Positions 1-9,888 of a DNA stretch of 9,888 nt are shown piece after piece; position 1 is the stretch's first letter; every line of letters starts with the position of its first letter. Source of the DNA: a virus (lineage: Duplodnaviria > Heunggongvirae > Uroviricota > Caudoviricetes); IMG/VR virus record IMGVR_UViG_2529292908_000017, positions 1 through 9,888 of that record; one strand, written 5' to 3'. Made by a program: the position numbers and the translations under genes. Under the pieces are notes generated by a model. It saw nothing but the letters and a program-made list of their open reading frames with translations. It searched no databases and was not told the DNA's origin.

Positions 1-1242
1 ATGGCGAGAAAAACACACCCATTAACCACAGTGCAGATCAAAGCAGCCAGACCAGCGCAAAAGGAGTACACCCTGCAGGACGGCGGAGGGCTTTTTCTCC
101 TGGTCAAACCGTCTGGATCAAAACTCTGGAGATTTTCCTACTACCGACCATCGGACAAAAAAAGAATATTGCTGAGTTTTGGATCGCTTGAAGATGTTTC
201 CCTGGCTGATGCCAGAAAACGCCGTAGCGAGTACAGGACGTTAATCAGTGCCGGAACTGACCCGCAGGACCACGAGAGGCAAAAAAGAGAGACAGAGGCC
301 CGAAGACAAGGGAACACGTTCGAAAATGTGGCGGCGGCATGGTACCAGGTGAAAATCAGCCAGAATCTGGCCCCCAACACGATTAAAGACATCTGGCGTT
401 CGCTGGATAAATATGTATTCCCGTTCATCGGCAACACGCCAATAGATACCCTCACCGCCCGAAGGTTCGTTGAAGTGCTTACCCCCATCAAGGAGCGCGG
501 CAACCTGGAAACACTCAAGCGGGTTTTACAGCGCGTTAATGAGGTAATGGATTACGCCGCCAACAGTGGGCTGATTGATGCCAATCCGGCTATGAATGTG
601 CGTAAGGCGTTTCCCTCACCTGTAAAAAAACATATGCCAACAATCCGCCCCGAACAGCTGCCGGAGCTTATGCAGGCTTTATCAGTATCGGCAACAGAAC
701 GGCAGACCAGATTACTGATTGAATGGCAGTTACTGACCGTAACCCGTCCCGCCGAAGCGTCATCAACGCGGTGGGATGAAATCAACCTGGACGCGAAGCA
801 ATGGACGATACCTGCCGGACGCATGAAGATGCGCAGGGATCACGTTATCCCGCTTTCCGGTCAGGCTATGGCGGTGCTGGAGGCCATGAAACCAATCAGC
901 CACCACCGCAATTACGTTTTCCCAAGTCTGAAAGACCCACAGCAGCCGATGAACAGCCAGACAGCTAACGCAGCATTGCGGCGTATGGGATTCGCTGGCG
1001 TGCTGGTGTCTCATGGATTACGCGCCATATTCAGCACAGCAGCGAACGAGGAAGGATTCGAGCCGGACGTAATAGAGGCGGCACTTGCCCACGTCGACAC
1101 CAACGAAGTTAGACGGGCATACAACCGGAGCAACTACATAGAAAAACGCATCGTGCTGATGCGCTGGTGGGGCGAATTTGTCGAGGCTGCGGCGACGGGC
1201 GTAACCCTCGCCAGTGGTAAAAGGGGTATCCGAGCCGTGTAG
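1..1242 (+). CDS. int: Tyrosine recombinase / integrase, P4-type (satellite / genomic-island family)
   Basis: 413-aa ORF starting at window base 1. N-terminal arm-type region (GGGLFLLVKPSGSKLWRFSYY) typical of P4-family integrases; C-terminal catalytic region with HGLRAIFST (H-x-x-R) and RAYNRSNY (tyrosine nucleophile region). Recognition by eye, no search. Confidence 0.9.
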   Translation: MARKTHPLTTVQIKAARPAQKEYTLQDGGGLFLLVKPSGSKLWRFSYYRPSDKKRILLSFGSLEDVSLADARKRRSEYRTLISAGTDPQDHERQKRETEARRQGNTFENVAAAWYQVKISQNLAPNTIKDIWRSLDKYVFPFIGNTPIDTLTARRFVEVLTPIKERGNLETLKRVLQRVNEVMDYAANSGLIDANPAMNVRKAFPSPVKKHMPTIRPEQLPELMQALSVSATERQTRLLIEWQLLTVTRPAEASSTRWDEINLDAKQWTIPAGRMKMRRDHVIPLSGQAMAVLEAMKPISHHRNYVFPSLKDPQQPMNSQTANAALRRMGFAGVLVSHGLRAIFSTAANEEGFEPDVIEAALAHVDTNEVRRAYNRSNYIEKRIVLMRWWGEFVEAAATGVTLASGKRGIRAV

Positions 1243-1319
1243 CTGTACAGAAAACCAGTAAAAACTACGAAAACCATGTAAAACCGTCGTATAATTGCAT
1301 CAAATTTAACGACAAGGCC

Positions 1320-1571
1320 GTGAAACATGAAACCGTTAAGATGCAAAAAAATATCAGATGCAATTGCGACGGGCTGCAACTGGCCCTGATGGTTCAGCAT
1401 GAATTTTGGTCAACCTACGATCCGGAGGACAGGACGACGGCCCCATCAAAAAAACAGGTAGTAGATTTTCTGGTATCCCGTGGCGCTTCCAGAAATCTGG
1501 CGGTAAGTATTGATAAGGTCGTACGTCCGGCATCTATGAAGATCGGAGGCAGGCCCAAAAAATGGCGGTAA
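1320..1571 (+). CDS. Hypothetical small protein (83 aa)
   Basis: ORF with AAGG about 10 nt upstream of the ATG, ending 10 nt before a strong intrinsic terminator. A TATAAT hexamer lies at about 1290-1295. No family recognised. Confidence 0.45.
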   Translation: MKHETVKMQKNIRCNCDGLQLALMVQHEFWSTYDPEDRTTAPSKKQVVDFLVSRGASRNLAVSIDKVVRPASMKIGGRPKKWR

Positions 1572-1580
1572 CAATCCTGG

Positions 1581-1606
1581 AAGCGGCAGAAATGCCGCTT
1601 TTTTTA
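1581..1606 (+). terminator. Rho-independent terminator
   Basis: Stem AGCGGCA / TGCCGCT (7 bp) with GAAA loop followed by a T6-7 run, immediately after the 1320..1571 ORF. Confidence 0.7.
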
Positions 1607-1629
1607 TAATTCCATTTCAAATCATCAAT

Positions 1630-1735
1630 ATAAAAAACGGTGTATACCGTTTAAAAACGGTGGGAACTGTTTTTACCCATATCCGATGATTTACCGTATT
1701 TGTCACCGGAATACACCGGATTCACAAGGTAAATC
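1630..1735 (+). promoter_or_regulatory. Putative promoter/operator region upstream of alpA
   Basis: 10-bp direct repeat AAAAACGGTG at 1633-1642 and 1653-1662; inverted half-sites ACGGT-N4-ACCGT at 1637-1650; direct repeat CACCGGA at 1704-1710 and 1714-1720; AAGG RBS at 1726-1729 before the ATG at 1739. Function inferred. Confidence 0.3.
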
Positions 1736-1738
1736 ACG

Positions 1739-1944
1739 ATGGAAGCAATCAGAAAAATTATCTTTCGCCAGGAAGTAAAAAAATTATCCACATCAAGGCA
1801 GACAGCACGCTGCAAAGCATGATCAACGCCGGAGAATTTCCGCAGGGTTTTCGCGTTGGTTTACGCCGTCGCGGATGGTATGAGGATGATGTGTTGGCCT
1901 GGCAGAAAGAACGCGAACAGGAAGCACGCGGAACGGCTGCTTAA
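1739..1944 (+). pseudogene. alpA: AlpA-family (prophage CP4-57-type) HTH regulator, apparently disrupted by a 1-nt frameshift
   Basis: Frame from ATG 1739 reads MEAIRKIIFRQEVKKLSTSRQTARCKA then stops (TGA 1820-1822). The -1 frame continues LQSMINAGEFPQGFRVGLRRRGWYEDDVLAWQKERE to TAA 1942-1944. Joined, they match the AlpA pattern (TG-x-SR-x-T-IY-x-hh-x-G-x-FP ... G-W-x-E-x-D-h-x-x-W). Length 206 nt is not a multiple of 3; shift localised to about 1803-1811. Confidence 0.6.
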
Positions 1945-2092
1945 CGGGTATCACAGATATGACAAACACGAAAAAAGCGGCCCCGATATGGAGCCGCCTT
2001 TCTGAACAATTAACCCGCTGCGCCTTATGTGTATGTGATCCCAAACATAAGCACGGGGATGATAGCCGCTATCAGGCTGGTGGGCAATGCAA

Positions 2093-2266
2093 TCAGTCTG
2101 GTTCAGTTCGTTGCCATACCTGCAATGAGCGCTTTTCCCTATACTCTTTAAGGAATTGCTCAAGGGCAAAAGCACATGGTGCGAATCTTTCTGATTCATG
2201 CTCTATCTTTCTGCGCCGTCTTTTCCGTGCCGGTGATAATGTTTTGGTCAATTCTTTATCGGTCAT
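2093..2266 (-). CDS. Hypothetical small basic protein (57 aa from second ATG; 62 aa from first)
   Basis: Minus-strand ORF MTDKELTKTLSPARKRRRRKIEHESERFAPCAFALEQFLKEYREKRSLQVWQRTEPD, with AGGA 7 nt upstream of the internal ATG (+ coordinates 2264-2266). Composition is protein-like, unlike the overlapping 186-aa + ORF. No homologue recognised. Confidence 0.3.
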   Translation of the reverse strand: MTDKELTKTLSPARKRRRRKIEHESERFAPCAFALEQFLKEYREKRSLQVWQRTEPD

Positions 2267-2692
2267 TGTGTTGTCCTGCATAGCAATACGCCGTAATACC
2301 TCACACCACGGCGCTGGTGATGGTTACTCCTGCTCTTTGGCCTTGCGCCGCTGGCGGCGTTTGATCTCACCTTTAACGGCAGTAACTATAAATTGCGCCT
2401 TGCTTTCACCTTCATCTAAATTTTTTCTAAGTCTGCAACAACATCATGCGGGAATCTGGCATTTAACTGTTGCGACTTATTATTTGTTGAACCTGTTGCC
2501 ATTACTGAATCCTCTCTAAGTTGGTGCGATTCAGTATACACAAAAAAAATTTCAGAGAAAGGCTTGAAGTGCGATTCACTTACTGATAGGTTAAAAACGA
2601 ATGGTGCGATGCACCAAACAACAACGCCCCGCAGTGGTGGCACACATGCAGGGCGTCTAACCACCAACGATAACGAGAGTATCGAGGTAGCT

Positions 2693-2896
2693 ATGAGAAA
2701 TCATACCACACACCCGCAAGGGCGGGACTCGCACGACCTGAATAAATACATCTGGCGTTTTATCGCCCTGAGCACGGCACAACCGCGCGTGATTACCATT
2801 GAGGCCACCAGCGAACAGGAAGCACGCCTGCAATCCCCGGCTGGCTGCGTGATGGTATTCGCTGCCCGTATTCGCCAGGGGTCACATCATGCGTAA
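2693..2896 (+). CDS. Small protein, paralogue A of a tandem pair; possibly Ash / Icd-like family (unverified)
   Basis: ATG 2693 preceded by GAGG (2684-2687). C-terminal motif YIWRF ... EATSEQEARLQSP ... FAARIRQGSHHA is repeated in the next gene, with synonymous third-position differences (CGT/CGC, CGC/CGT). The longer TTG start at 2564 in the ORF track has no credible RBS. Confidence 0.5.
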   Translation: MRNHTTHPQGRDSHDLNKYIWRFIALSTAQPRVITIEATSEQEARLQSPAGCVMVFAARIRQGSHHA

Positions 2897-3575
2897 AAAC
2901 CGCTTGCAAAAAATTATCACGGGGCTGTATGCTTCCCCCGTCGCCCACATGGCGACCGGGTTTAGCAGCCTGAATACATCTGGCGGACAGCCGCCCACAT
3001 CCGATAAGCGGTTTTTTTGTGTCCGTAAACCTACCCATACCCGCATTATGGCGGGGCGTAACGGGGGAGCCTTTGTGCTCGCTGGTTTCCAGATGACCAG
3101 TCTGCTAACCCTGTTACGTCTCGCCACCATGTTTAGCAGCGTAGTAGCGAGACTCCTTAAAATTCATCTGGGAGCCTTTCACATGGCTGTATTCGCACGC
3201 CCTTATTTTGTCTGGCGCTTTATGCAGTGCCTGACAGACAGTATTGCAATATTCACCGTTACCGCTGCCACTGAGCGCGAAGCACGTGCACAGCTGCCGC
3301 ACGCACATCTTATTTTTGTCGCCCGTATTCGCCAGGGGGGGGGAGTCATGCATAAAATACCCTTTGATGTTCTTGTTCATTCTGAAAACGCATTAATCCG
3401 CGCAAAGGAAATGGACGCATTACTACTTAAGTTAATTGATGTGCCGGAAAGTGGCGATGAATCTGATTCAATGATGTTTTCTGCCGTGCGTACGCTATTA
3501 ACGCCTGTTATTAATGAATTAAATACAGTGATGGCAATTCACGAGAATAATAAAGCGCAGCACAACGGAGAATAA
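2889..3575 (+). CDS. Composite ORF: N-terminal segment of unknown nature, then paralogue B (from internal ATG 3183 with GGAG RBS), read through a G9 tract into a 75-aa C-terminal segment
   Basis: Continuous 228-aa ORF; ATG 2889 overlaps the stop of the previous gene (ATGCGTAA). Residues from 3183 (MAVFARPYFVWRF ... TAATEREARAQLP ... FVARIRQGGG) parallel paralogue A. G9 tract at 3335-3343; with G10 the paralogue would end ...QGGGSHA* (compare A: ...QGSHHA*) and a separate ORF would start at ATG 3348. Confidence 0.4.
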   Translation: MRKNRLQKIITGLYASPVAHMATGFSSLNTSGGQPPTSDKRFFCVRKPTHTRIMAGRNGGAFVLAGFQMTSLLTLLRLATMFSSVVARLLKIHLGAFHMAVFARPYFVWRFMQCLTDSIAIFTVTAATEREARAQLPHAHLIFVARIRQGGGVMHKIPFDVLVHSENALIRAKEMDALLLKLIDVPESGDESDSMMFSAVRTLLTPVINELNTVMAIHENNKAQHNGE

Positions 3576-3580
3576 AAAAC

Positions 3581-3880
3581 ATGAAAAATAAAAATTCTGG
3601 CGTTACTGCCAGCGGCCCCGCTCGTCCTGAATTTATGAACGGCGATATTTACCGCGATAAATATGGCGGCATGGTAACGATTAAAGGCGTGGCAGAACGG
3701 CGCATCACCTACCGTCGTGAAGGCTACGAATATGATTGCGTGATGCCTGTTTATCAGTTTCGGCGTGATTTTTCTCTGGTACAGGCAGCGCCCCGCAGTA
3801 AACCAACCAGCAGGGAGAAAGCACGCGCCAATATTCAGGAAATAAAAAAGATGCTTAACGTATTCAGGGGTAAAAAATGA
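3581..3880 (+). CDS. Hypothetical protein (99 aa), translationally coupled to the primase
   Basis: ORF with GGAG upstream; its TGA stop (3878-3880) overlaps the primase ATG (3877-3879) as ATGA. Protein-like composition; family not recognised. Confidence 0.6.
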   Translation: MKNKNSGVTASGPARPEFMNGDIYRDKYGGMVTIKGVAERRITYRREGYEYDCVMPVYQFRRDFSLVQAAPRSKPTSREKARANIQEIKKMLNVFRGKK

Positions 3881-5625
3881 AACTGGCACCGAACGTAAAA
3901 AAACAGCCACGCGGAATAAAACACAAAGACACAGAGGTAATTATTTTCGCGGGTAGTGATGCCTGGTCGCACGCGAAACAATGGCAGGAGCAGGATGGCC
4001 CCGCATCCGGCGATAATGTGCCGCCTGTGTGGCTTGGGCCAAATCAGCTTGCCGAACTTGATGCACTGAAAATTGTTCCGGATGGGAAAAAGCGCGTAAG
4101 GCTGTACCAGGCCGGAGAACTGGATTTGGTGGAGACCAAAAAGATTGGTCAGAAGCTGGCGGCAGCAGATATTCAGGACGCAAATTTTTACCCCGAAGGA
4201 ATGCACGTCCAGAAGTGTGAAAACTGGCGGCGCTATCTGAATGCTGAGCGTGAAAATATTGCCGCAGGGCTTACCATGCCGGAGCAGAAAAATACGCAAC
4301 TGGCACAAATGGCAGACAGTGAGCGCGCGCAGCTGCTTGCCGAGCGCTTTGATGGCGTTTGTGTGCATCCTGAAAGTGAAATCGTTCACGTATGGCGCGG
4401 CGGGGTATGGTGTCCGGTCAGCACAATGGAGCTGAGCCGCGAAATGGTGGCGATCTATTCAGAGCACAGGGCCACTTTCAGCAAGCGCGTAATCAATAAC
4501 GCCGTGGAAGCGTTAAAAGTTATTGCCGAACCAATGGGCGAGCCGTCCGGCGATTTGCTGCCGTTCGCCAATGGTGCGCTTGACCTGAAAACGGGGGAAT
4601 TTTCCCCGCACACGCCGGAGAACTGGATCACCACGCACAACGGCATTGAGTACACGCCACCAGCACCAGGGGAGAACATCCGCGATAACGCGCCAAACTT
4701 TCATAAATGGCTTAAGCACGCAGCCGGAAAAGACCCGCGCAAGATGATGCGTATATGTGCCGCGCTGTACATGATTATGGCGAACCGGTACGACTGGCAG
4801 ATGTTTATTGAGGCCACCGGAGACGGCGGGAGCGGTAAAAGTACATTCACGCACATAGCCAGCCTTCTGGCAGGGAAACAGAACACGGTAAGCGCTGAAA
4901 TGACATCGCTTGATGATGCTGGTGGACGTGCGCAGGTTGTCGGGAGTCGTCTTATCGTCCTGGCTGACCAGCCGAAATATACAGGCGAAGGAACGGGCAT
5001 CAAGAAAATCACGGGCGGTGACCCCGTGGAAATTAACCCGAAATATGAAAAGCGTTTTACGGCGGTAATCAGGGCGGTGGTGCTGGCGACCAACAACAAC
5101 CCGATGATATTCACCGAACGGGCCGGAGGTGTGGCACGTCGTCGCGTGATTTTCCGTTTCGACAATATCGTCAGTGAGGCCGAAAAAGACAGGGAGCTAC
5201 CGGAAAAGATTGCGGCTGAAATCCCTGTGATTATCCGCCGATTACTGGCGAACTTTTCCGCCCCTGAAAAGGCACGGGCTTTACTCATTGAACAGCGTGA
5301 CGGTGATGAAGCACTGGCGATAAAGCAGCAAACGGATCCGGTTATTGAGTTTTGCCAGTTCCTGAATTTTCTGGAGGAAGCGCGCGGCCTGATGATGGGG
5401 GGCGGTGGCGATTCAGTGAAGTACACGACCAGGAACAGCCTTTACCGCGTCTATCTGGCGTTTATGGCATACGCAGGCAGGAGCAAACCGCTAAACGTAA
5501 ATGACTTTGGCAAGGCTATGAAGCCAGCCGCGAAAGTTTACGGACATGAATATATTACGCGGAAAGTTAAGGGAGTAACGCAGACTAACGCAATAACAAC
5601 AGACGATTGCGACGCGTTTTTATAA
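3877..5625 (+). CDS. Phage/plasmid primase-helicase, P4-family C-terminal domain / D5-like SF3 NTPase (satellite pri-rep type)
   Basis: 582-aa ORF with AGGGGT RBS. Walker A P-loop ATGDGGSGKST, followed by motifs typical of D5 / P4-alpha-type helicases (LIVLADQP Walker B-like, VVLATNN). Immediately followed by an iteron array. N-terminal ~300 aa not assigned. Confidence 0.88.
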   Translation: MKLAPNVKKQPRGIKHKDTEVIIFAGSDAWSHAKQWQEQDGPASGDNVPPVWLGPNQLAELDALKIVPDGKKRVRLYQAGELDLVETKKIGQKLAAADIQDANFYPEGMHVQKCENWRRYLNAERENIAAGLTMPEQKNTQLAQMADSERAQLLAERFDGVCVHPESEIVHVWRGGVWCPVSTMELSREMVAIYSEHRATFSKRVINNAVEALKVIAEPMGEPSGDLLPFANGALDLKTGEFSPHTPENWITTHNGIEYTPPAPGENIRDNAPNFHKWLKHAAGKDPRKMMRICAALYMIMANRYDWQMFIEATGDGGSGKSTFTHIASLLAGKQNTVSAEMTSLDDAGGRAQVVGSRLIVLADQPKYTGEGTGIKKITGGDPVEINPKYEKRFTAVIRAVVLATNNNPMIFTERAGGVARRRVIFRFDNIVSEAEKDRELPEKIAAEIPVIIRRLLANFSAPEKARALLIEQRDGDEALAIKQQTDPVIEFCQFLNFLEEARGLMMGGGGDSVKYTTRNSLYRVYLAFMAYAGRSKPLNVNDFGKAMKPAAKVYGHEYITRKVKGVTQTNAITTDDCDAFL

Positions 5626-5636
5626 TTTTTTGCAAT

Positions 5637-5865
5637 GTCTGTCTACCCTGTCTACCTGAGTAAAGAAAAATACATTTAATTCAGTATATTAACTTAGGTA
5701 GACAGCCTTTTTTCACTGTCTACCTACTATCTACCCTCTCTACCTGATTTTACCTGAATCAGACAGGGAGGTAGATACGGGGTAGATAGTGGATAAAAGC
5801 ACTCTACCCCGCTGAAAGCCGCGCCATTACTGGCATGAGAGCCAGTAAGGTAGATAAGGTAGACA
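5637..5865. repeat. Iteron array, putative replication origin
   Basis: About 11 copies of the heptamer GTCTACC / GGTAGA(C/T) in both orientations (e.g. 5641-5647, 5650-5656, 5697-5703, 5718-5724, 5770-5776, 5781-5787, 5849-5855, 5858-5864) around an AT-rich core (about 5657-5695), directly downstream of the primase-helicase gene. Confidence 0.65.
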
Positions 5866-5913
5866 AGGGGAGGCACAACTCAAAACTTTTTAAACGAGGG
5901 GGTAAAAATAAAA

Positions 5914-6171
5914 ATGCGCACATCAGGAAAACTTAATAATCAGAAGAAGCAGCATAACCGCGCCATTGACCTTACAGAGCACTGGCTGAGAGTGGCGATA
6001 AAAATCATCGACCGCAACACGGGGGAAGGATACGCGAAAGCACATCCCGACCTGATAAGCGCATTCATGACCACGGCGGCAGCAAACTTTGCCACGCTGA
6101 CAGAACGGGAGATTGCCGAAGCGGAACAGGTGACAACCATCAACGTTAAAACCGGAGAGCAGACAGCATGA
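5914..6171 (+). CDS. Hypothetical protein (85 aa), coupled to ssb
   Basis: ORF with GAGGGGG upstream; its stop overlaps the next ATG (ATGA at 6168-6171). No family recognised. Confidence 0.5.
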   Translation: MRTSGKLNNQKKQHNRAIDLTEHWLRVAIKIIDRNTGEGYAKAHPDLISAFMTTAAANFATLTEREIAEAEQVTTINVKTGEQTA

Positions 6172-6590
6172 CAGCACAGATAGCGGCTTACGGGCGGCTG
6201 GTGGCTGACCCGCAGTTAAAGACCACCAGCAAAGGGACACAAATGGCGATGGCGAGTATGGCGGTTCCCCTGCCATGCAGCCAGGCAGATGACGGAACGG
6301 CGACGATGTGGTTATCTGTCCTGGCGTTTGGCAGACAGGCCGACGCACTGGCAAAACACCACAAAGGCGAACTCCTGAGCGTGGCGGGTAATATGCAGGT
6401 GAGCCAGTGGACAGGCCAGAACGGCGAAACGCGGCAGGGCTGGCAGGTTATCGCAGACAGTGTAATCAGTGCCAGAACGGCGCGACCGGGCGGCAAAAAA
6501 GGTCAACAGGGGCAGGCTACTGACGCACTGAACAGGGCAAAACAACAGGCGGGAAATGATGATCCGTACGGGGATAACATACCGTTTTAA
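6168..6590 (+). CDS. ssb: Single-stranded DNA-binding protein (SSB-like OB fold with acidic C-terminal tip)
   Basis: 140 aa. N-terminal OB region aligns by eye with E. coli SSB (YGRLVADPQLK vs VGNLGQDPEVR; WLSVLAFGRQADALAKHHKGE vs [21 protein letters not shown]). Gly/Gln-rich linker and C-terminal DDPYGDNIPF resemble the SSB tail DDDIPF. Confidence 0.78.
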   Translation: MTAQIAAYGRLVADPQLKTTSKGTQMAMASMAVPLPCSQADDGTATMWLSVLAFGRQADALAKHHKGELLSVAGNMQVSQWTGQNGETRQGWQVIADSVISARTARPGGKKGQQGQATDALNRAKQQAGNDDPYGDNIPF

Positions 6591-6606
6591 GCAACGAGTA
6601 ACAGAG

Positions 6607-6628
6607 GCCGGAGCAATCCGGCTTTTAT
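6607..6628 (+). terminator. Rho-independent terminator after ssb
   Basis: Stem GCCGGA / TCCGGC with GCAA loop followed by TTTTAT. Confidence 0.65.
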
Positions 6629-6861
6629 CAGTTGAGTCCGTCACACTACGCAAAAAAAAGCCGGAATATTCCGACCCTTTCATCACCAAAGAGAATAATT
6701 TATGTCTTTGAACTTGTAACGCTGTACAGAATGACACGTAACGCCGGATAAATAAACGAAGATTGAAACTTTGCACACTATTGCATAGCAATGCATAAAG
6801 ATGCCAAACAAGGCAGATGATAAAATTAACGCGACACTTTTACTAAGTATTAAGAGGTTAT

Positions 6862-7902
6862 ATGAGTGATTTATATTCGCCAGCCATGTTAATACAGGTT
6901 GTTAATGCCGAAGATATTCAATGGCAGATTAATTCTTTATTTATAAACCTGTTTTTTAAGCGAGTCGTTACATTTGAGACGCGGGATATTGCGCTTGATA
7001 TTATTGACGATCCAGACATCCCGATGGCTGCATTTTGTTCCCCTATGGTTGGTAGTAAAGTCTCACGCGATGAAGGCTACGAATCAAAAGTAATTCGCCC
7101 TGGCTATATGAAGCCAAAAAGTAGTATCGACCCAAATAAAATAGCCGTTCGTCAACCAGGCGTATCACCTGAACAATTCAATGCATATTCATCACGCAGT
7201 TTCAAAATAAAGCGAGCGTTAGTAAGACAAGCGCAGGCAATTCGTGCGCGTATTGAGTGGCTTGCTGTTCAGGCGGTTACAACGGGGAAAAATATCATTG
7301 AAGGCGATGGAATTGAACGTTATGAACTGGACTGGAATATAAAACCACAAAATATTATCACGCAGTCCGGCGGCACGGAGTGGAGCGGTAGAGATTTATC
7401 AACATTTGATCCAAACGATGACATCGAAGAGTACGCAGAAATCAGCGAAGGTACTACAAATATCATCGTAATGGGCCGCAACGTATGGAAAAAATACCGC
7501 GCCTTTAAAGCAGTAAAAGATTGCCTTGATACTCGACGGGGATCTAATTCCATTCTTGAAACGGCCCTGAAAAATCTTGGGGATTCTGTAAGCTTCAAGG
7601 GTTACGTTGGCGATGTTGCTATTGTGGTATATAGCGGACGTTATACCGACGAGGACGGCAAAGAAAAATATTTCCTTGATCCTGATTTGATGGTGCTTGG
7701 CAACACATCATTACAGGGCATCGTTGCCTACGGTGGCATTCAGGATCCTGAGTTAATCAGAATGGGGCTGACTAAAGCCGAACTTGCGCCGAAAAATTAC
7801 ATCGTACCAGGTGATCCGGCTATTGAATATGTGCAGACGCACAGCGCACCGCAACCAATACCGGCCCGCATCAATCGTTTTGTTACCGTTCGCATTGGTT
7901 AA
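6862..7902 (+). CDS. Major capsid protein, phage lambda gpE family
   Basis: 346 aa with AAGAGG RBS. Long colinear matches to remembered lambda gpE: NIITQSGGTEWSGRDLSTFDPNDDIEEYA (lambda NITQSGGTEWSKRDKSTYDPTDDIEAYA); FKAVKDCLDTRRGSNSILETALKNLGDSVSFKGYVGDVAIVVYSGRY ... MVLGNT (lambda FKAVKEKLDTRRGSNSELETAVKDLGKAVSYKGMYGDVAIVVYSGQY ... MVLGNT). Confidence 0.9.
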   Translation: MSDLYSPAMLIQVVNAEDIQWQINSLFINLFFKRVVTFETRDIALDIIDDPDIPMAAFCSPMVGSKVSRDEGYESKVIRPGYMKPKSSIDPNKIAVRQPGVSPEQFNAYSSRSFKIKRALVRQAQAIRARIEWLAVQAVTTGKNIIEGDGIERYELDWNIKPQNIITQSGGTEWSGRDLSTFDPNDDIEEYAEISEGTTNIIVMGRNVWKKYRAFKAVKDCLDTRRGSNSILETALKNLGDSVSFKGYVGDVAIVVYSGRYTDEDGKEKYFLDPDLMVLGNTSLQGIVAYGGIQDPELIRMGLTKAELAPKNYIVPGDPAIEYVQTHSAPQPIPARINRFVTVRIG

Positions 7903-7911
7903 GGGGGAGCA

Positions 7912-8253
7912 ATGGCTACTCATTACACTGAACTCATGGCTGGCACTGAAGCACTGGTTACTACGTTGGGGATATTTTCAGCTAATAAAGGGGTAATTCC
8001 TGCATTTACGCCACTGATGCAAGAAGATGCAACTGGTGCACTGGTGGTATGGGATGGAACGAGCGCAGGCAAAGCTGTTTATGTTTCCGCTGTACAAATC
8101 GATACAGCGACAAAAACGCAGGCTCAGGTTTATAAAACCGGCGTCTTAAATGTTGATGCTCTGAACTGGCCTGAGTCTGTAACACAACTATCAGCAAAAG
8201 TTGCTGCGTTTGTTGGCTCAGGTATTTCTGTTCAGCCGCTGGCACGTGTGTGA
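7912..8253 (+). CDS. Head decoration protein, phage lambda gpD family
   Basis: 113 aa with GGGGGAG RBS. Matches remembered gpD: TPLMQEDATGALVVWDGTSAGKAV (lambda [24 protein letters not shown]), YKTGVLNVDALNWPE (YKSGTFRYEDVLWPE), AAFVGSGISV (TAFAGTAISIV). Confidence 0.85.
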   Translation: MATHYTELMAGTEALVTTLGIFSANKGVIPAFTPLMQEDATGALVVWDGTSAGKAVYVSAVQIDTATKTQAQVYKTGVLNVDALNWPESVTQLSAKVAAFVGSGISVQPLARV

Positions 8254-8262
8254 GGTACGAGA

Positions 8263-8607
8263 ATGATTGAAAGAGATAGTCAGCTACGAGAGCTATTAGA
8301 TATCGATGACAAAATGAGTTTAAGCGAGCGCCTTGTTGATATGGATCAGGTAGTGGAGCTTACAACCCTTAGCCGTCGCACATTGCTAAACCTTGAGGCT
8401 CGCGGAGAGTTCCCCGAACGCGTACAGGTTACGAAAGGGCGCAAGGCATGGTATTTAAGCGAGGTTGTTGCGTGGATTAACAACATTCCGCGCGCATCAA
8501 ATTATTGCCTTGTTCCCACCCCCGAAAAACCTGATGCGGCGTTATGCCTCAAGATTGAACGCGCCAGGCGTAATGCCCTGAAAGGACGCAATAAGTTGAT
8601 TGGTTGA
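8263..8607 (+). CDS. AlpA/MerR-like helix-turn-helix DNA-binding protein (114 aa)
   Basis: GAGG RBS. Central segment VVELTTLSRRTLLNLEARGEFPERVQVTKGRKAWYLSEVVAWI fits the AlpA / excisionase-type HTH pattern, with N- and C-terminal extensions. Lies between the decoration gene and cos. Confidence 0.65.
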   Translation: MIERDSQLRELLDIDDKMSLSERLVDMDQVVELTTLSRRTLLNLEARGEFPERVQVTKGRKAWYLSEVVAWINNIPRASNYCLVPTPEKPDAALCLKIERARRNALKGRNKLIG

Positions 8608-8631
8608 TGAAATTAGGGCCCGTTCTGGCTG

Positions 8632-8830
8632 GCGGGTCCTTTCCGGCGATCCGGCAGGCTACGGGGCGGCGACCTCGCGGTTTTTCGCTATTTATGAGCC
8701 TTTTCAGGGGGGTGGTGGTGGTTTTGTTGTTTGATCTATCTTTATGAATGAAAAGGGAAAGATGCAAGCAATACACCAACCTGAAGCAGTAATTAAGTTG
8801 GTGTATTAATGAAATCTCATCTGATGAACA
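8632..8830 (+). other. cos site 1 (+ orientation): lambda-like cosQ/cosN (cosN 8664-8675, GGGCGGCGACCT) followed by a divergent cosB-like region up to the terS start
   Basis: GCGGGTCCTTTCCGGCGATCCGGCAGGCTACG-GGGCGGCGACCT-CGCGGTTTTTCGCTATTTATGA is near-identical to the remembered lambda cos junction. Downstream lacks lambda R-site-like GAAACGACA elements but has an 11-bp perfect inverted repeat (8770-8780 / 8797-8807). Confidence 0.75.
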
Positions 8831-8837
8831 AAAAAAC

Positions 8838-9350
8838 ATGGCGAAAAGCTGCCGTGTAAGTGCGACAGCGTTCGACAAGTGGGGAGTAACTCCCGTTGAG
8901 CGTAAAGGCCGTGAGGCGTTTTATGATGTTGCCAGCGTGATAGAAAATAGGGTTAACAATGCAATTAGCCAGCTTATAAACGACAAAGGCGAGATTGACG
9001 ATGATGAACTTTTACGAGTCAGGATCAGATTACTGACAGCACAGGCAGAGGCGCAGGAACTTAAAAACGATCGCGATCGCGGTGACGTGATTGATACTGA
9101 GTTTTGCCTGTACGCGCTTTCAAAGCTGGCGAGTCAGATTTCATCAATCATGGACAGCCTCCCGCTTACTATGCAAAGGAGCTTCCCACAGATTACCCCC
9201 GCCATGCTGGATAGGCTTAAAAGGGAAGTGGTTAAAGCCTGTAATGCCAGTGCCAGAGTTGCCGACAACCTCCCACAGATACTGGCTGATTACTTGAAAG
9301 AAACAACCGGAAACGTACCGGAAAAGTTGCTACAGAAGAAAGGCGAGTAA
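8838..9350 (+). CDS. Terminase small subunit, lambda Nu1 family, with divergent N-terminal DNA-binding region
   Basis: 170 aa. C-terminal two-thirds matches remembered Nu1: LTAQAEAQELKNDRDRGDVIDTEFCLYALSKLASQISSIMDSLPLTMQRSFPQ (lambda LTRAQADAQELKNARDSAEVVETAFCTFVLSRIAGEIASILDGLPLSVQRRFPE). N-terminal ~45 aa only loosely similar. An upstream ATG at 8824 (MNKKTW...) is out of frame by 1 nt across an A7 tract. Confidence 0.85.
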   Translation: MAKSCRVSATAFDKWGVTPVERKGREAFYDVASVIENRVNNAISQLINDKGEIDDDELLRVRIRLLTAQAEAQELKNDRDRGDVIDTEFCLYALSKLASQISSIMDSLPLTMQRSFPQITPAMLDRLKREVVKACNASARVADNLPQILADYLKETTGNVPEKLLQKKGE

Positions 9351-9369
9351 CAGACGCGCAATTATTGAA

Positions 9370-9580
9370 CAAAACTGAGAAACGACATGAAAGCGTCATA
9401 AATCGCCATTTTAGATGATTACCGTGTCGTTTCTTTTTATTGTGTATCTATTTAAAAACAAATAGTTATGTTCGAGAAGTACCGACATGCTTTTTCCAGA
9501 AAATTTTTCATAAACAGATAAAAACCGCGAGGTCGCCGCCCCGTAACGGGTCCATAATTCCAGGAAGGACCCGACGACAC
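9370..9580 (-). other. cos site 2 (inverted): cosN at 9530-9541 with a lambda-like cosB (R3 / IHF-I1 / R2 / R1-like elements) on the terS-proximal side
   Basis: The reverse complement reads ...CCCGTTACG-GGGCGGCGACCT-CGCGGTTTTTATCTGTTTATGAAAAATTTTCTGG ... CGAACATAACTATTTGTTTTTAAATAGATAC ... AAAGAAACGACACGG ... CATGTCGTTTCTCAG, paralleling the remembered lambda left end (cosN, I1 IHF site CGTCATAACTTAATGTTTTTATTTAAAATACC, R2 GGAAACGACAGG, R1 CTGTCGTTTCC). No terminase gene follows in this orientation. Confidence 0.7.
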
Positions 9581-9606
9581 CAGACAATCAGAACGATGGG
9601 TGCACA

Positions 9607-9888
9607 ATGACAGAAGCCGAAATACTGGGATTAATCCGCCGTGCTGGTGGAATCAGCCAGCAGACTGACGAACAGGCCACGCAGCCGGACAGCGTGACAG
9701 CCGAAAATTATGCGCGTGTTGTTGCTGAGGTGATGCGCCGTGATGGTATCCAGCTTAATGATGTGGATATGCGCAACATACGGATCCGCGTTCTTGAAAT
9801 GCTGGCCTACCGTCGCCGCGTGCAGACGTACAGGGAAAAAGCAAAAATTACGTACCACTGGAAGAAGCCGGAGCGGTTACGGCGGTAA
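9607..9888 (+). CDS. Hypothetical protein (93 aa)
   Basis: Complete ORF ending at the last base of the window (TAA 9886-9888). Weak RBS. No family recognised; Arg-rich C-terminus. Confidence 0.45.
   Translation: MTEAEILGLIRRAGGISQQTDEQATQPDSVTAENYARVVAEVMRRDGIQLNDVDMRNIRIRVLEMLAYRRRVQTYREKAKITYHWKKPERLRR

Follow-up and report, generated by a model that had tools for sequence, protein, structure and literature searches.

A Nu1-family small terminase gene without a cognate large terminase, bracketed by two cos sites in a cos-type phage-inducible chromosomal island

The DNA analysed here, positions 1 to 9,888 of the IMG/VR virus record IMGVR_UViG_2529292908_000017 (hereafter the window, 9,888 nucleotides), is a compact, rightward-transcribed phage-inducible chromosomal island (PICI) of ~10 kb, as judged from its open reading frame (ORF) list and Pfam annotation. 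Near its right end lies the terS gene that is the subject of this study, an ORF on the plus strand (8838-9350) encoding a small terminase subunit (TerS) of 170 amino acids (aa). Two lambda-type cosN sequences bracket the terS ORF as a 38-nt inverted repeat; the site upstream is referred to as cos1 and the inverted site downstream as cos2 (Table 1). No large terminase (TerL), portal, protease, tail or lysis protein is present among the window ORFs on the evidence of the ORF list and Pfam. The initial annotation had also seen no terL in the window but allowed that one might follow directly beyond it, together with a full head module. Neither was found after terS in 30+ related loci with downstream sequence, and in every chromosomal relative examined, at three attachment (att) sites, it is host genes that come after the 93-aa ORF closing the module.

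The assignment of this ORF to the Nu1-like small terminases, made in the initial annotation, is borne out by profile searches. Phage_Nu1 is the sole significant Pfam family for the window TerS (E=8e-23, residues 60-138 only), PHROG 57, 'terminase small subunit', matches residues 1-164 (E=1.6e-48), and hhalign aligned the satellite family with lambda-type Nu1 at 99.95% probability over residues 6-166 of the full-length form. By these profiles, the window ORF is a genuine Nu1-family small terminase from end to end. BLASTP against lambda Nu1 aligned residues 23-156 at 37% identity and left out the first 22 residues; by domain, identity to lambda Nu1 is 39% in the N-domain and 40% in the C-half. 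The family profile retrieved lambda TerS from the PDB (6HN7 chain B, E=0.007), aligned from residue 6 and with a shortened wing, and matched the lambda DNA-binding domain (DBD) structure 1J9I at E about 1. A single-sequence PDB search with the window TerS returned nothing meaningful and did not recover the solved Nu1 DBD. The AlphaFold2 model, for which a 24-sequence alignment was the input, was poor (pLDDT 54), and only its secondary-structure order was used; this order, a1-a2-hairpin-a3, fits a winged helix-turn-helix (HTH).

The two ends of the window TerS have different closest relatives. Its N-domain is 61% identical to the DBD of phage N15 gp1 (44% over the full length), and the N-terminal 66 residues match only N15-like and Pseudomonas D3-like TerS proteins (52-62%), with no match to any lambda-like E. 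coli phage. For the C-terminal 114 residues the best match is the TerS of phage PhiR5_1 (60.6%), ahead of lambda (45%). With an N-domain closest to N15 and a C-half closest to PhiR5_1, the window TerS is a mosaic. Homology with lambda Nu1 predicts three domains: an N15-type winged HTH, a central assembly region and a variable C-terminal tail. Within the satellite family the N-terminal, predicted winged HTH is the most conserved part and the C-terminal ~55 residues are the most variable; the tail contains a satellite-specific extension, TTGNVPEKLLQKKGE, and the C-terminal region has the skeleton LK..KA.N..A......P..L..Y that is common to all Nu1 proteins. Ratios of nonsynonymous to synonymous divergence (dN/dS) between terS alleles are 0.16-0.19, indicating that the gene is under purifying selection, and dS between alleles is ~0.1 for the first third of the protein and ~0.9 for the last.

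The window has the features by which PICIs were defined (Fillol-Salom 2018): a length of ~8-12 kb, an int gene, an alpA-type regulator, a pri-rep module, unidirectional organization, a lack of lysis and tail genes and a dedicated att site. Relatives are integrated at tRNA-Pro between yejM and yejO/narP (MEW and Nissle 1917), at roxA-phoQ and at cspD-clpS, and Table S1 in the paper by Fillol-Salom et al. (2018; PMC6092414) includes the yejM-site islands among its PICIs. Two islands, EcCIIHE3034 and EcCI18098, were reported to encode TerS (Fillol-Salom et al., 2018, ISME J, PMC6092414); the EcCIIHE3034 protein is WP_000835278.1, which is also the protein of the Nissle yejM island and is 98% identical to the window ORF. 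The terS gene occurs in 793 of 5426 complete E. coli genomes (~15%), including Nissle 1917 and O157:H7 strains. The same module is also found within prophage capsid genes: homologues of ~59% identity are located in satellites integrated inside capsid gene E of lambdoid prophages, a helper-embedded configuration described by the Williams laboratory. A search of complete E. coli genomes did not find the exact window, and since the best match covers only 83% of it at 93% identity, the window is a recombinant of known PICI modules. Its integrase and primase backbone is of the yejM type. In the order of its genes and the lengths of their products, its late module (6862-8607) agrees with helper-embedded satellites from Enterobacter and Citrobacter. 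The late modules of the Nissle, IHE3034 and CFT073 islands differ, encoding a 351-aa major capsid protein (MCP), a 111-aa decoration protein (Dec) and a 137-aa hypothetical protein.

The upstream site, cos1, combines a phage-like cleavage region with an island-specific binding region. It consists of a cosQ-like sequence, GGGTCCTTTCCGG (8634-8646), a cosN with the lambda cohesive end GGGCGGCGACCT (8664-8675, plus strand) and the flanking sequence CGCTATTTATGA. Positions 8632-8710 are 91% identical to the cosQ-cosN region of many lambdoid phages, and the match goes no further: phage similarity stops ~45 bp past cosN and falls to a background of 49-61% identity, in agreement with the initial annotation, which had described the cosB next to terS as divergent. 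The site is kept in all related islands, and in all alleles the ancestral terS start lies 145 bp downstream of the cosN at 8664. Within this interval a single block is conserved across E. coli islands and the 56%-diverged satellites of Enterobacter and Citrobacter. It has the pattern GGTGGTGGTnTTGTTnTT and reads GGTGGTGGTTTTGTTGTT in the window (8714-8731), +51 to +68 from cosN, the position of lambda R3. The pattern is unique in the window, where 0.01 chance matches are expected.

The distribution of this block follows the DBD of the adjacent terS. Every fetched locus with a satellite-type DBD has a single copy of GGTGGTGGTnTTGTTnTT, always upstream of terS; this applies to every chromosomal island examined and, among the loci with a TerS call, to 19/19 helper-embedded loci with this DBD. 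None of the five chimera loci with a lambda-type DBD has it (0/5), their cosB being lambda-type instead, and it is also missing from the rppA island and from the cos sites of phages and helpers. In the satellite at locus L075, where the C-half has been exchanged, the block still tracks the N-domain. These results provide good comparative evidence that the GGTGGTGGTnTTGTTnTT block and the satellite-type DBD form a DBD-cosB pair, in which the block would be the site that TerS binds. Further downstream is an inverted repeat (AATACACCAAC / GTTGGTGTATT), which stops 2 nt short of the ancestral terS ATG. It is present in Nissle-type islands, degraded in the MEW allele and unconserved in embedded satellites, and could possibly represent further R-like sites or a regulatory hairpin. 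Scanning for promoters and terminators around terS returned no signal above shuffled expectation, and the two "terminators" called are the cosN sequences themselves.

Table 1. Genes and sites in the window
Feature	Positions	Strand	Remarks
Tyrosine integrase	1-1242		
DUF4222 protein	3581-3880		
D5/P4-type primase	3877-5625		
Single-stranded DNA-binding protein (SSB)	6168-6590		
Major capsid protein	6862-7902		lambda E-like, 346 aa
Decoration protein (Dec)	7912-8253		gpD-like, 113 aa
AlpA-type HTH protein	8263-8607		114 aa
cos1, phage-like part	8634..8710	+	91% identity to lambdoid cosQ-cosN
Candidate TerS-binding element of cos1	8714..8731	+	R3 equivalent by comparison; putative binding site
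Perfect 11-nt inverted repeat	8770..8807	+	
Ancestral terS start (ATG 8809) and leader	8809..8859	+	16-codon out-of-frame stub here
terS	8838..9350	+	Nu1-family small terminase, 170 aa as called
cos2	9369..9575	-	complete phage-type cos, inverted
93-aa ORF	9607..9888	+	closes the module

The AlpA-type gene listed directly upstream of cos1 is the second of its kind in the window. The 93-aa ORF matches PHROG 1561, of unknown function, at E=6e-56 and has no Pfam match; terS-type and rppA-type modules alike have it after the cos2 position. In embedded satellites it begins 13 nt past terS.

The downstream site differs from cos1 in having a complete cosB. On the minus strand, cos2 contains a cosQ-like sequence at 9560-9572 and a cosN with the cohesive end GGGCGGCGACCT at 9541-9530, followed by R3, an AT-rich I1-like segment, R2 and R1 in register with the phage R sites. 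Similarity to lambdoid phage cos sites extends over 151 bp and takes in cosB (83% for PhiR5_1, the closest phage, and 73% for lambda), and the R3-I1 segment of cos2 is identical at 37/38 positions to the cosB of L080, a lambda-like prophage that hosts an embedded satellite. The site may allow the helper's own TerS to package the island leftwards through terS, opposite to cos1. No cos2 is present in the MEW island or in the helper-embedded satellites. In the MEW island (L001 17065-17080) it is deleted from cosN base 9 through cosB, leaving GGGCGGCG joined to the terS stop region; loss of the site from this island shows that islands with an in-frame terS can lack it. Both cos sites of EcCICFT073 are functional, and for lambda-mediated transfer its cos2 is dispensable and even inhibitory (PMC6092414). 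The published description of EcCICFT073 cos2 found no recognisable phage cosB there. By eye, three copies of a ATGTCCGG-type motif (L007 11130-11309) are arranged like R sites.

The terS gene of the window is a frameshifted allele. In relatives TerS starts ten codons further upstream, at an ATG equivalent to 8809, and reads MKSHLMNKKN-MAKS; alleles with an A8 tract give a protein of 180 aa. The poly-A tract of the window (8830-8836) is A7; the 10-aa leader is thereby shifted out of the terS frame, and the ORF as called begins at Met11. At the protein level the leader, HL(M/L)NKKN, is kept down to 56%-identical homologues, where it is encoded without the homopolymer, and by this comparison the terS leader is real coding sequence. 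Its loss removes residues 1-10, half of the predicted HTH helix 1 (a1). The A7 tract was found in 8/8 fetched loci encoding the exact 170-aa protein, and these loci span two island backbones with different integrases and replicases. The exact 170-aa form is present on 104 contigs and the exact 180-aa form on at least 1000; another allele (L088) has an A9 tract. The occurrence of A7, A8 and A9 alleles, with A7 on 104 contigs, marks the tract as a mutational hotspot, and it may be a phase-variable or slippage site. From the sequence, NKKNMAKS would be regained by a -1 slip within the A-run. At 9069-9080 lies a second slippage-prone spot of terS, the tandem hexamer GATCGC GATCGC, which encodes DRDR: the common allele P0036 (659 contigs) has one GATCGC copy fewer and encodes a 178-aa protein.

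Satellites embedded in a helper allow the two TerS proteins to be compared on the same DNA. Loci were fetched centred on the embedded-satellite integrase, and nine cis pairs of the window's TerS type were obtained, with satellite TerS proteins that share 81-90% identity with that of Nissle. The helper TerS in these pairs is 83-100% identical to lambda Nu1, and the TerL N-terminus is lambda-type in the two helpers checked. Across the nine pairs, satellite and helper TerS share 32-40% identity in the DBD, 32-53% in the linker and 48-52% in the assembly region, the best conserved segment. Identity is lowest, 29-39%, in the last 41 residues, the TerL-binding tail; in lambda, the last ~41 residues of Nu1 bind gpA (Murialdo and Feiss review). 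The initial annotation had described a strongly conserved C-terminal half, which these values do not uphold: only the central assembly region reaches ~50%, and the tail is the most variable part within the satellite family. Its companion statement, that the N-terminus is divergent, is correct relative to lambda but overlooks that the domain is recognisably N15-type and is the part best conserved among the satellites. Only one TerS type, the 190-aa protein of L075 and L074, bore out the prediction that the satellite C-terminus would match the helper TerS; the window's type contradicted it.

Comparison of the fetched loci resolved two types of N-domain, each with its own cosB, and at least three types of C-half in shuffled combinations. 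The satellite DBD is joined to C-type A in the window, Nissle and L034, to C-type B in L021 and to a lambda-like C-half (73%) in L075; in L033, a helper-identical lambda DBD with a lambda cosB is joined to C-type B. The crossovers are located at a conserved RLTxAQADAQELKN segment, consistent with the jump in dS from the N-terminal to the C-terminal third. Chimeras occur in both directions, with a lambda DBD and satellite-type C-half in L033, L039 and L068 and a satellite DBD and lambda-like C-half in L074 and L075, which points to frequent recombination between helper and satellite at the conserved central segment. No prophage terS whose C-half is nearly identical at the DNA level was found in E. 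coli genomes; among the matches listed, all were satellite copies. Two groups emerge as candidate helpers, lambda-like prophages on the strength of physical embedding, and PhiR5_1-like phages on the strength of similarity in the C-half and in cos2.

Most satellites embedded in lambda-like prophages have an altered cos1 cohesive end, GGGCGTCAGGCG or GGGCGGAAGGCG in place of GGGCGGCGACCT; the loci concerned are L034, L040, L058, L066, L080, L032, L035, L063, L085, L033 and L039. The altered end lies ~145 bp upstream of the terS start in loci of the window's family and ~190 bp upstream in the L033 and L039 chimeras. The cosQ and flanking sequences beside it are intact, and the helper's own cos is canonical. 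Such ends might block cutting by helper terminase at the embedded satellite, or might give incompatible ends.

Among known systems, the closest is the TerS of EcCIIHE3034 and EcCI18098, which is essentially the same protein, and IHE3034 has the same layout of MCP, Dec, cos1, terS, cos2 and 93-aa ORF. The window differs in its A7 allele and in an upstream late module like that of helper-embedded satellites. For EcCIIHE3034 the 2018 paper noted only that it 'encodes TerS', with near-zero transfer and no helper or mechanism (PMC6092414). Lambda Nu1 (gpNu1, PF07471; 1J9I, 6HN7 chain B) has the domain order predicted for the island protein, winged HTH, assembly region and C-terminal tail, and shares with it the position of the gene directly downstream of cosQ-cosN-cosB and an identical cohesive-end sequence. 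In contrast to lambda Nu1, the island TerS has no overlapping terL gene and an unrelated cosB; its DBD, ~39% identical, has a shortened wing and lacks 11 residues after helix 3, and its gpA-binding tail is about 30-40% identical with a 12-14 residue extension. N15 gp1 has the closest phage DBD (61% in the N-domain, 44% overall), and N15 cosB is a lone R3 (PMC9026076). The N15 R3 region contains GTTGTTGTTT, a motif related to the island block at a similar distance from cosN. An exact match between N15 R3 and cos1 was rejected, the similar motif being offset by ~9 bp or re-phased, and N15-like specificity is a lead only. In its C-half, N15 gp1 is of the lambda type (~80% to lambda) and the island protein is not (39%); the N15 cohesive end also differs.

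RppA of EcCICFT073 occupies the same slot, between cos1 and an inverted cos2 and before the same 93-aa ORF, on the same PICI backbone; the rppA gene there encodes 144 aa and follows genes for MCP, Dec and a hypothetical protein. Rpps have an N-terminal TerS-like winged HTH, as predicted for the island TerS, and also resemble it in their PICI-specific cosB and their expected outcome, redirected helper packaging. The proteins themselves are different: BLASTP gave E=1.4, RppA matches PHROG 57 only at residues 7-47 (the HTH), and Rpps are 139-154 aa long with an unrelated a3-a6 dimerisation domain and no Nu1 C-half, as against 170-180 aa for the island TerS. The family-profile search of the PDB, which found 6HN7 chain B (deposited as terminase small subunit), returned no Rpp-named chain up to E 10. 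Islands of the terS and rppA types have the same cosN and a wholly different cos1 cosB. Taken with the shared slot, this identifies terS and rppA as alternative cassettes, each with its own cosB. The pac-type TerS of Staphylococcus aureus pathogenicity islands (SaPIs) embodies the same concept, a satellite small terminase that pairs with helper TerL, but belongs to another protein family and acts in headful pac packaging; the island TerS is Nu1-family and cos-type, with a putative TerS-TerL pairing, and the sites flanking it are cos with lambda cohesive ends.

The reading that we favour, and to which we give an even chance, is that TerS is the packaging-specificity subunit of a cos-type PICI, a bona fide Nu1-family protein without a cognate TerL. 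A lambdoid helper would induce the island, which would replicate as concatemers; the N15-type winged HTH would bind the cosB element (GGT)3TTTGTTGTT ~50 bp to the right of the cos1 cosN, and the bound TerS would position the helper large terminase to nick cosN and package the island rightwards into helper-built capsids. TerS and cos1 would then be the functional equivalent of rppA and cos1 in EcCICFT073, with TerL recruited either directly by the TerS C-terminus or via mixed oligomers with helper TerS. We infer DNA binding, TerL recruitment and packaging by the island protein from sequence comparison. The initial annotation had arrived at a packaging redirector; the satellite context, the island-specific cosB and the rppA slot sustain that idea, although its premise of a conserved C-terminus fails and the idea is not new. 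Several observations weigh against the favoured reading. The TerL-binding tail is the segment in which satellite and cis helper TerS are least alike, and in lambda, N15 and PhiR5_1 the C-terminus of TerS varies together with the N-terminus of TerL, which suggests that the TerS-TerL contact is type-specific; the window tail is of the PhiR5_1 type, with no match to the most obvious, lambda-like helper. The conserved leader is missing from the window allele, so that its TerS, starting at Met11 unless slippage restores the frame, is probably weakened, and other satellite terS genes have nonsense mutations, in the DBD (L037 and L086) or mid-gene (L024). EcCIIHE3034 and EcCI18098 barely transferred after induction of resident prophages (PMC6092414), and a literature search on Nu1-type PICI TerS and on follow-up of EcCIIHE3034 found no functional study, nor was a paper on phage PhiR5_1 found.

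The mismatch between the tail and that of the cis helper weakens direct TerL docking and keeps alive an Rpp-like mixed oligomer. In such an arrangement the island TerS would co-assemble with helper TerS through the central assembly region without docking TerL itself; the island DBD would read cos1, the helper tail would hold TerL and helper cosB recognition would be spoiled. Rpp uses this mode and requires helper TerS (PMC6739421; PMC9026076), terS is positionally interchangeable with rppA, and the assembly region is the segment closest to the cis helper TerS, with the tail the furthest from it. Yet the island TerS retains a full-length C-terminal region with the skeleton of all Nu1 proteins and has no sequence similarity to RppA; Rpps, according to Murialdo and Feiss, are shorter proteins with no TerL-binding tail. 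The gain of a helper-like C-half by L075-type satellites is also more sensible if the tail contacts TerL. We regard the Rpp-like mode as unlikely, though deserving serious consideration; this mode, the favoured direct-subunit reading and two others, a disabled copy and interference, are not fully exclusive.

Loss of the conserved leader and of half of predicted helix 1, the minority status of the 170-aa form and the nonsense-mutated terS of L024, L037 and L086 would all be expected if the window terS were a crippled or decaying copy and the island relied on cos2 read by helper TerS, with no input from its own. In keeping with this, cos2 has a complete phage-type R3/R2/R1 and both EcCICFT073 cos sites function (PMC6092414). 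The remaining 170 codons are nevertheless intact and identical on 104 contigs and two island backbones, an in-frame ATG right at the frameshift predicts a near-full-length product, a -1 slip on the A-run would give back the wild-type sequence, and the cos2 of EcCICFT073 is dispensable, even inhibitory for lambda-mediated transfer. A disabled copy is rather unlikely on this balance. N-terminally disabled alleles do recur. In L037, a TGG-to-TAG change at the conserved Trp of the HTH leaves a restart at Met27, and L086 encodes the same 157-aa truncated form. That such alleles (A7, A9, TGG-to-TAG) leave the rest of the ORF intact could mean that island TerS, notably in DBD-defective forms, poisons or titrates helper TerL or TerS and blocks helper packaging. 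Rpp and SaPI Ppi provide a precedent for blocking helper TerS (PMC6739421), and L033-class chimeras, with a helper-identical DBD and satellite-type C-half, would compete for helper cosB. Interference is improbable all the same, because the DBD is strictly paired with its own cosB block beside a functional-looking cosN, which favours a positive packaging role, and the disabled alleles may be simple decay. A further proposal, quite doubtful, if not to the same degree as interference by itself, departs from a simple TerS swap and makes TerS a recombining two-module adaptor, a DBD and cosB cassette with an exchangeable C-half, its output switched by a hypermutable poly-A tract. The A8 form could be a full TerS driving cos1 packaging, and A7 and A9 forms a DBD-crippled poison subunit, with the island falling back on cos2; as the C-half is unlike the cis helper TerS, the protein could act via mixed oligomers, intermediate between Rpp and a true TerS. 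That terS is instead a leftover of a degraded prophage and not a satellite gene is scarcely credible. Its neighbours are capsid genes resembling lambda E and D and cos sites of phage type, but it lies in a compact, unidirectional PICI of ~10 kb (int, AlpA, DUF4222, primase or AAA_25 replicase, SSB) from a family catalogued in 2018, and the same module recurs at three att sites in the chromosome as well as within prophage capsid genes, never with its own terL, portal or tail genes.

The window TerS and the redirector idea are already in the literature, where the core PICI components of SatelliteFinder include a small terminase 'responsible for redirecting the packaging' (PMC10085698). The island is a known kind of element, and no new kind of system is revealed. 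Islands of the terS type are common in E. coli, yet the only studied E. coli PICI uses Rpp; to the question of how terS-type islands are packaged the present analysis adds a candidate TerS-binding site (8714-8731) and candidate helpers. This line of work could account for the spread of terS-type islands and be of use in the engineering of delivery vehicles based on cos-type PICIs.

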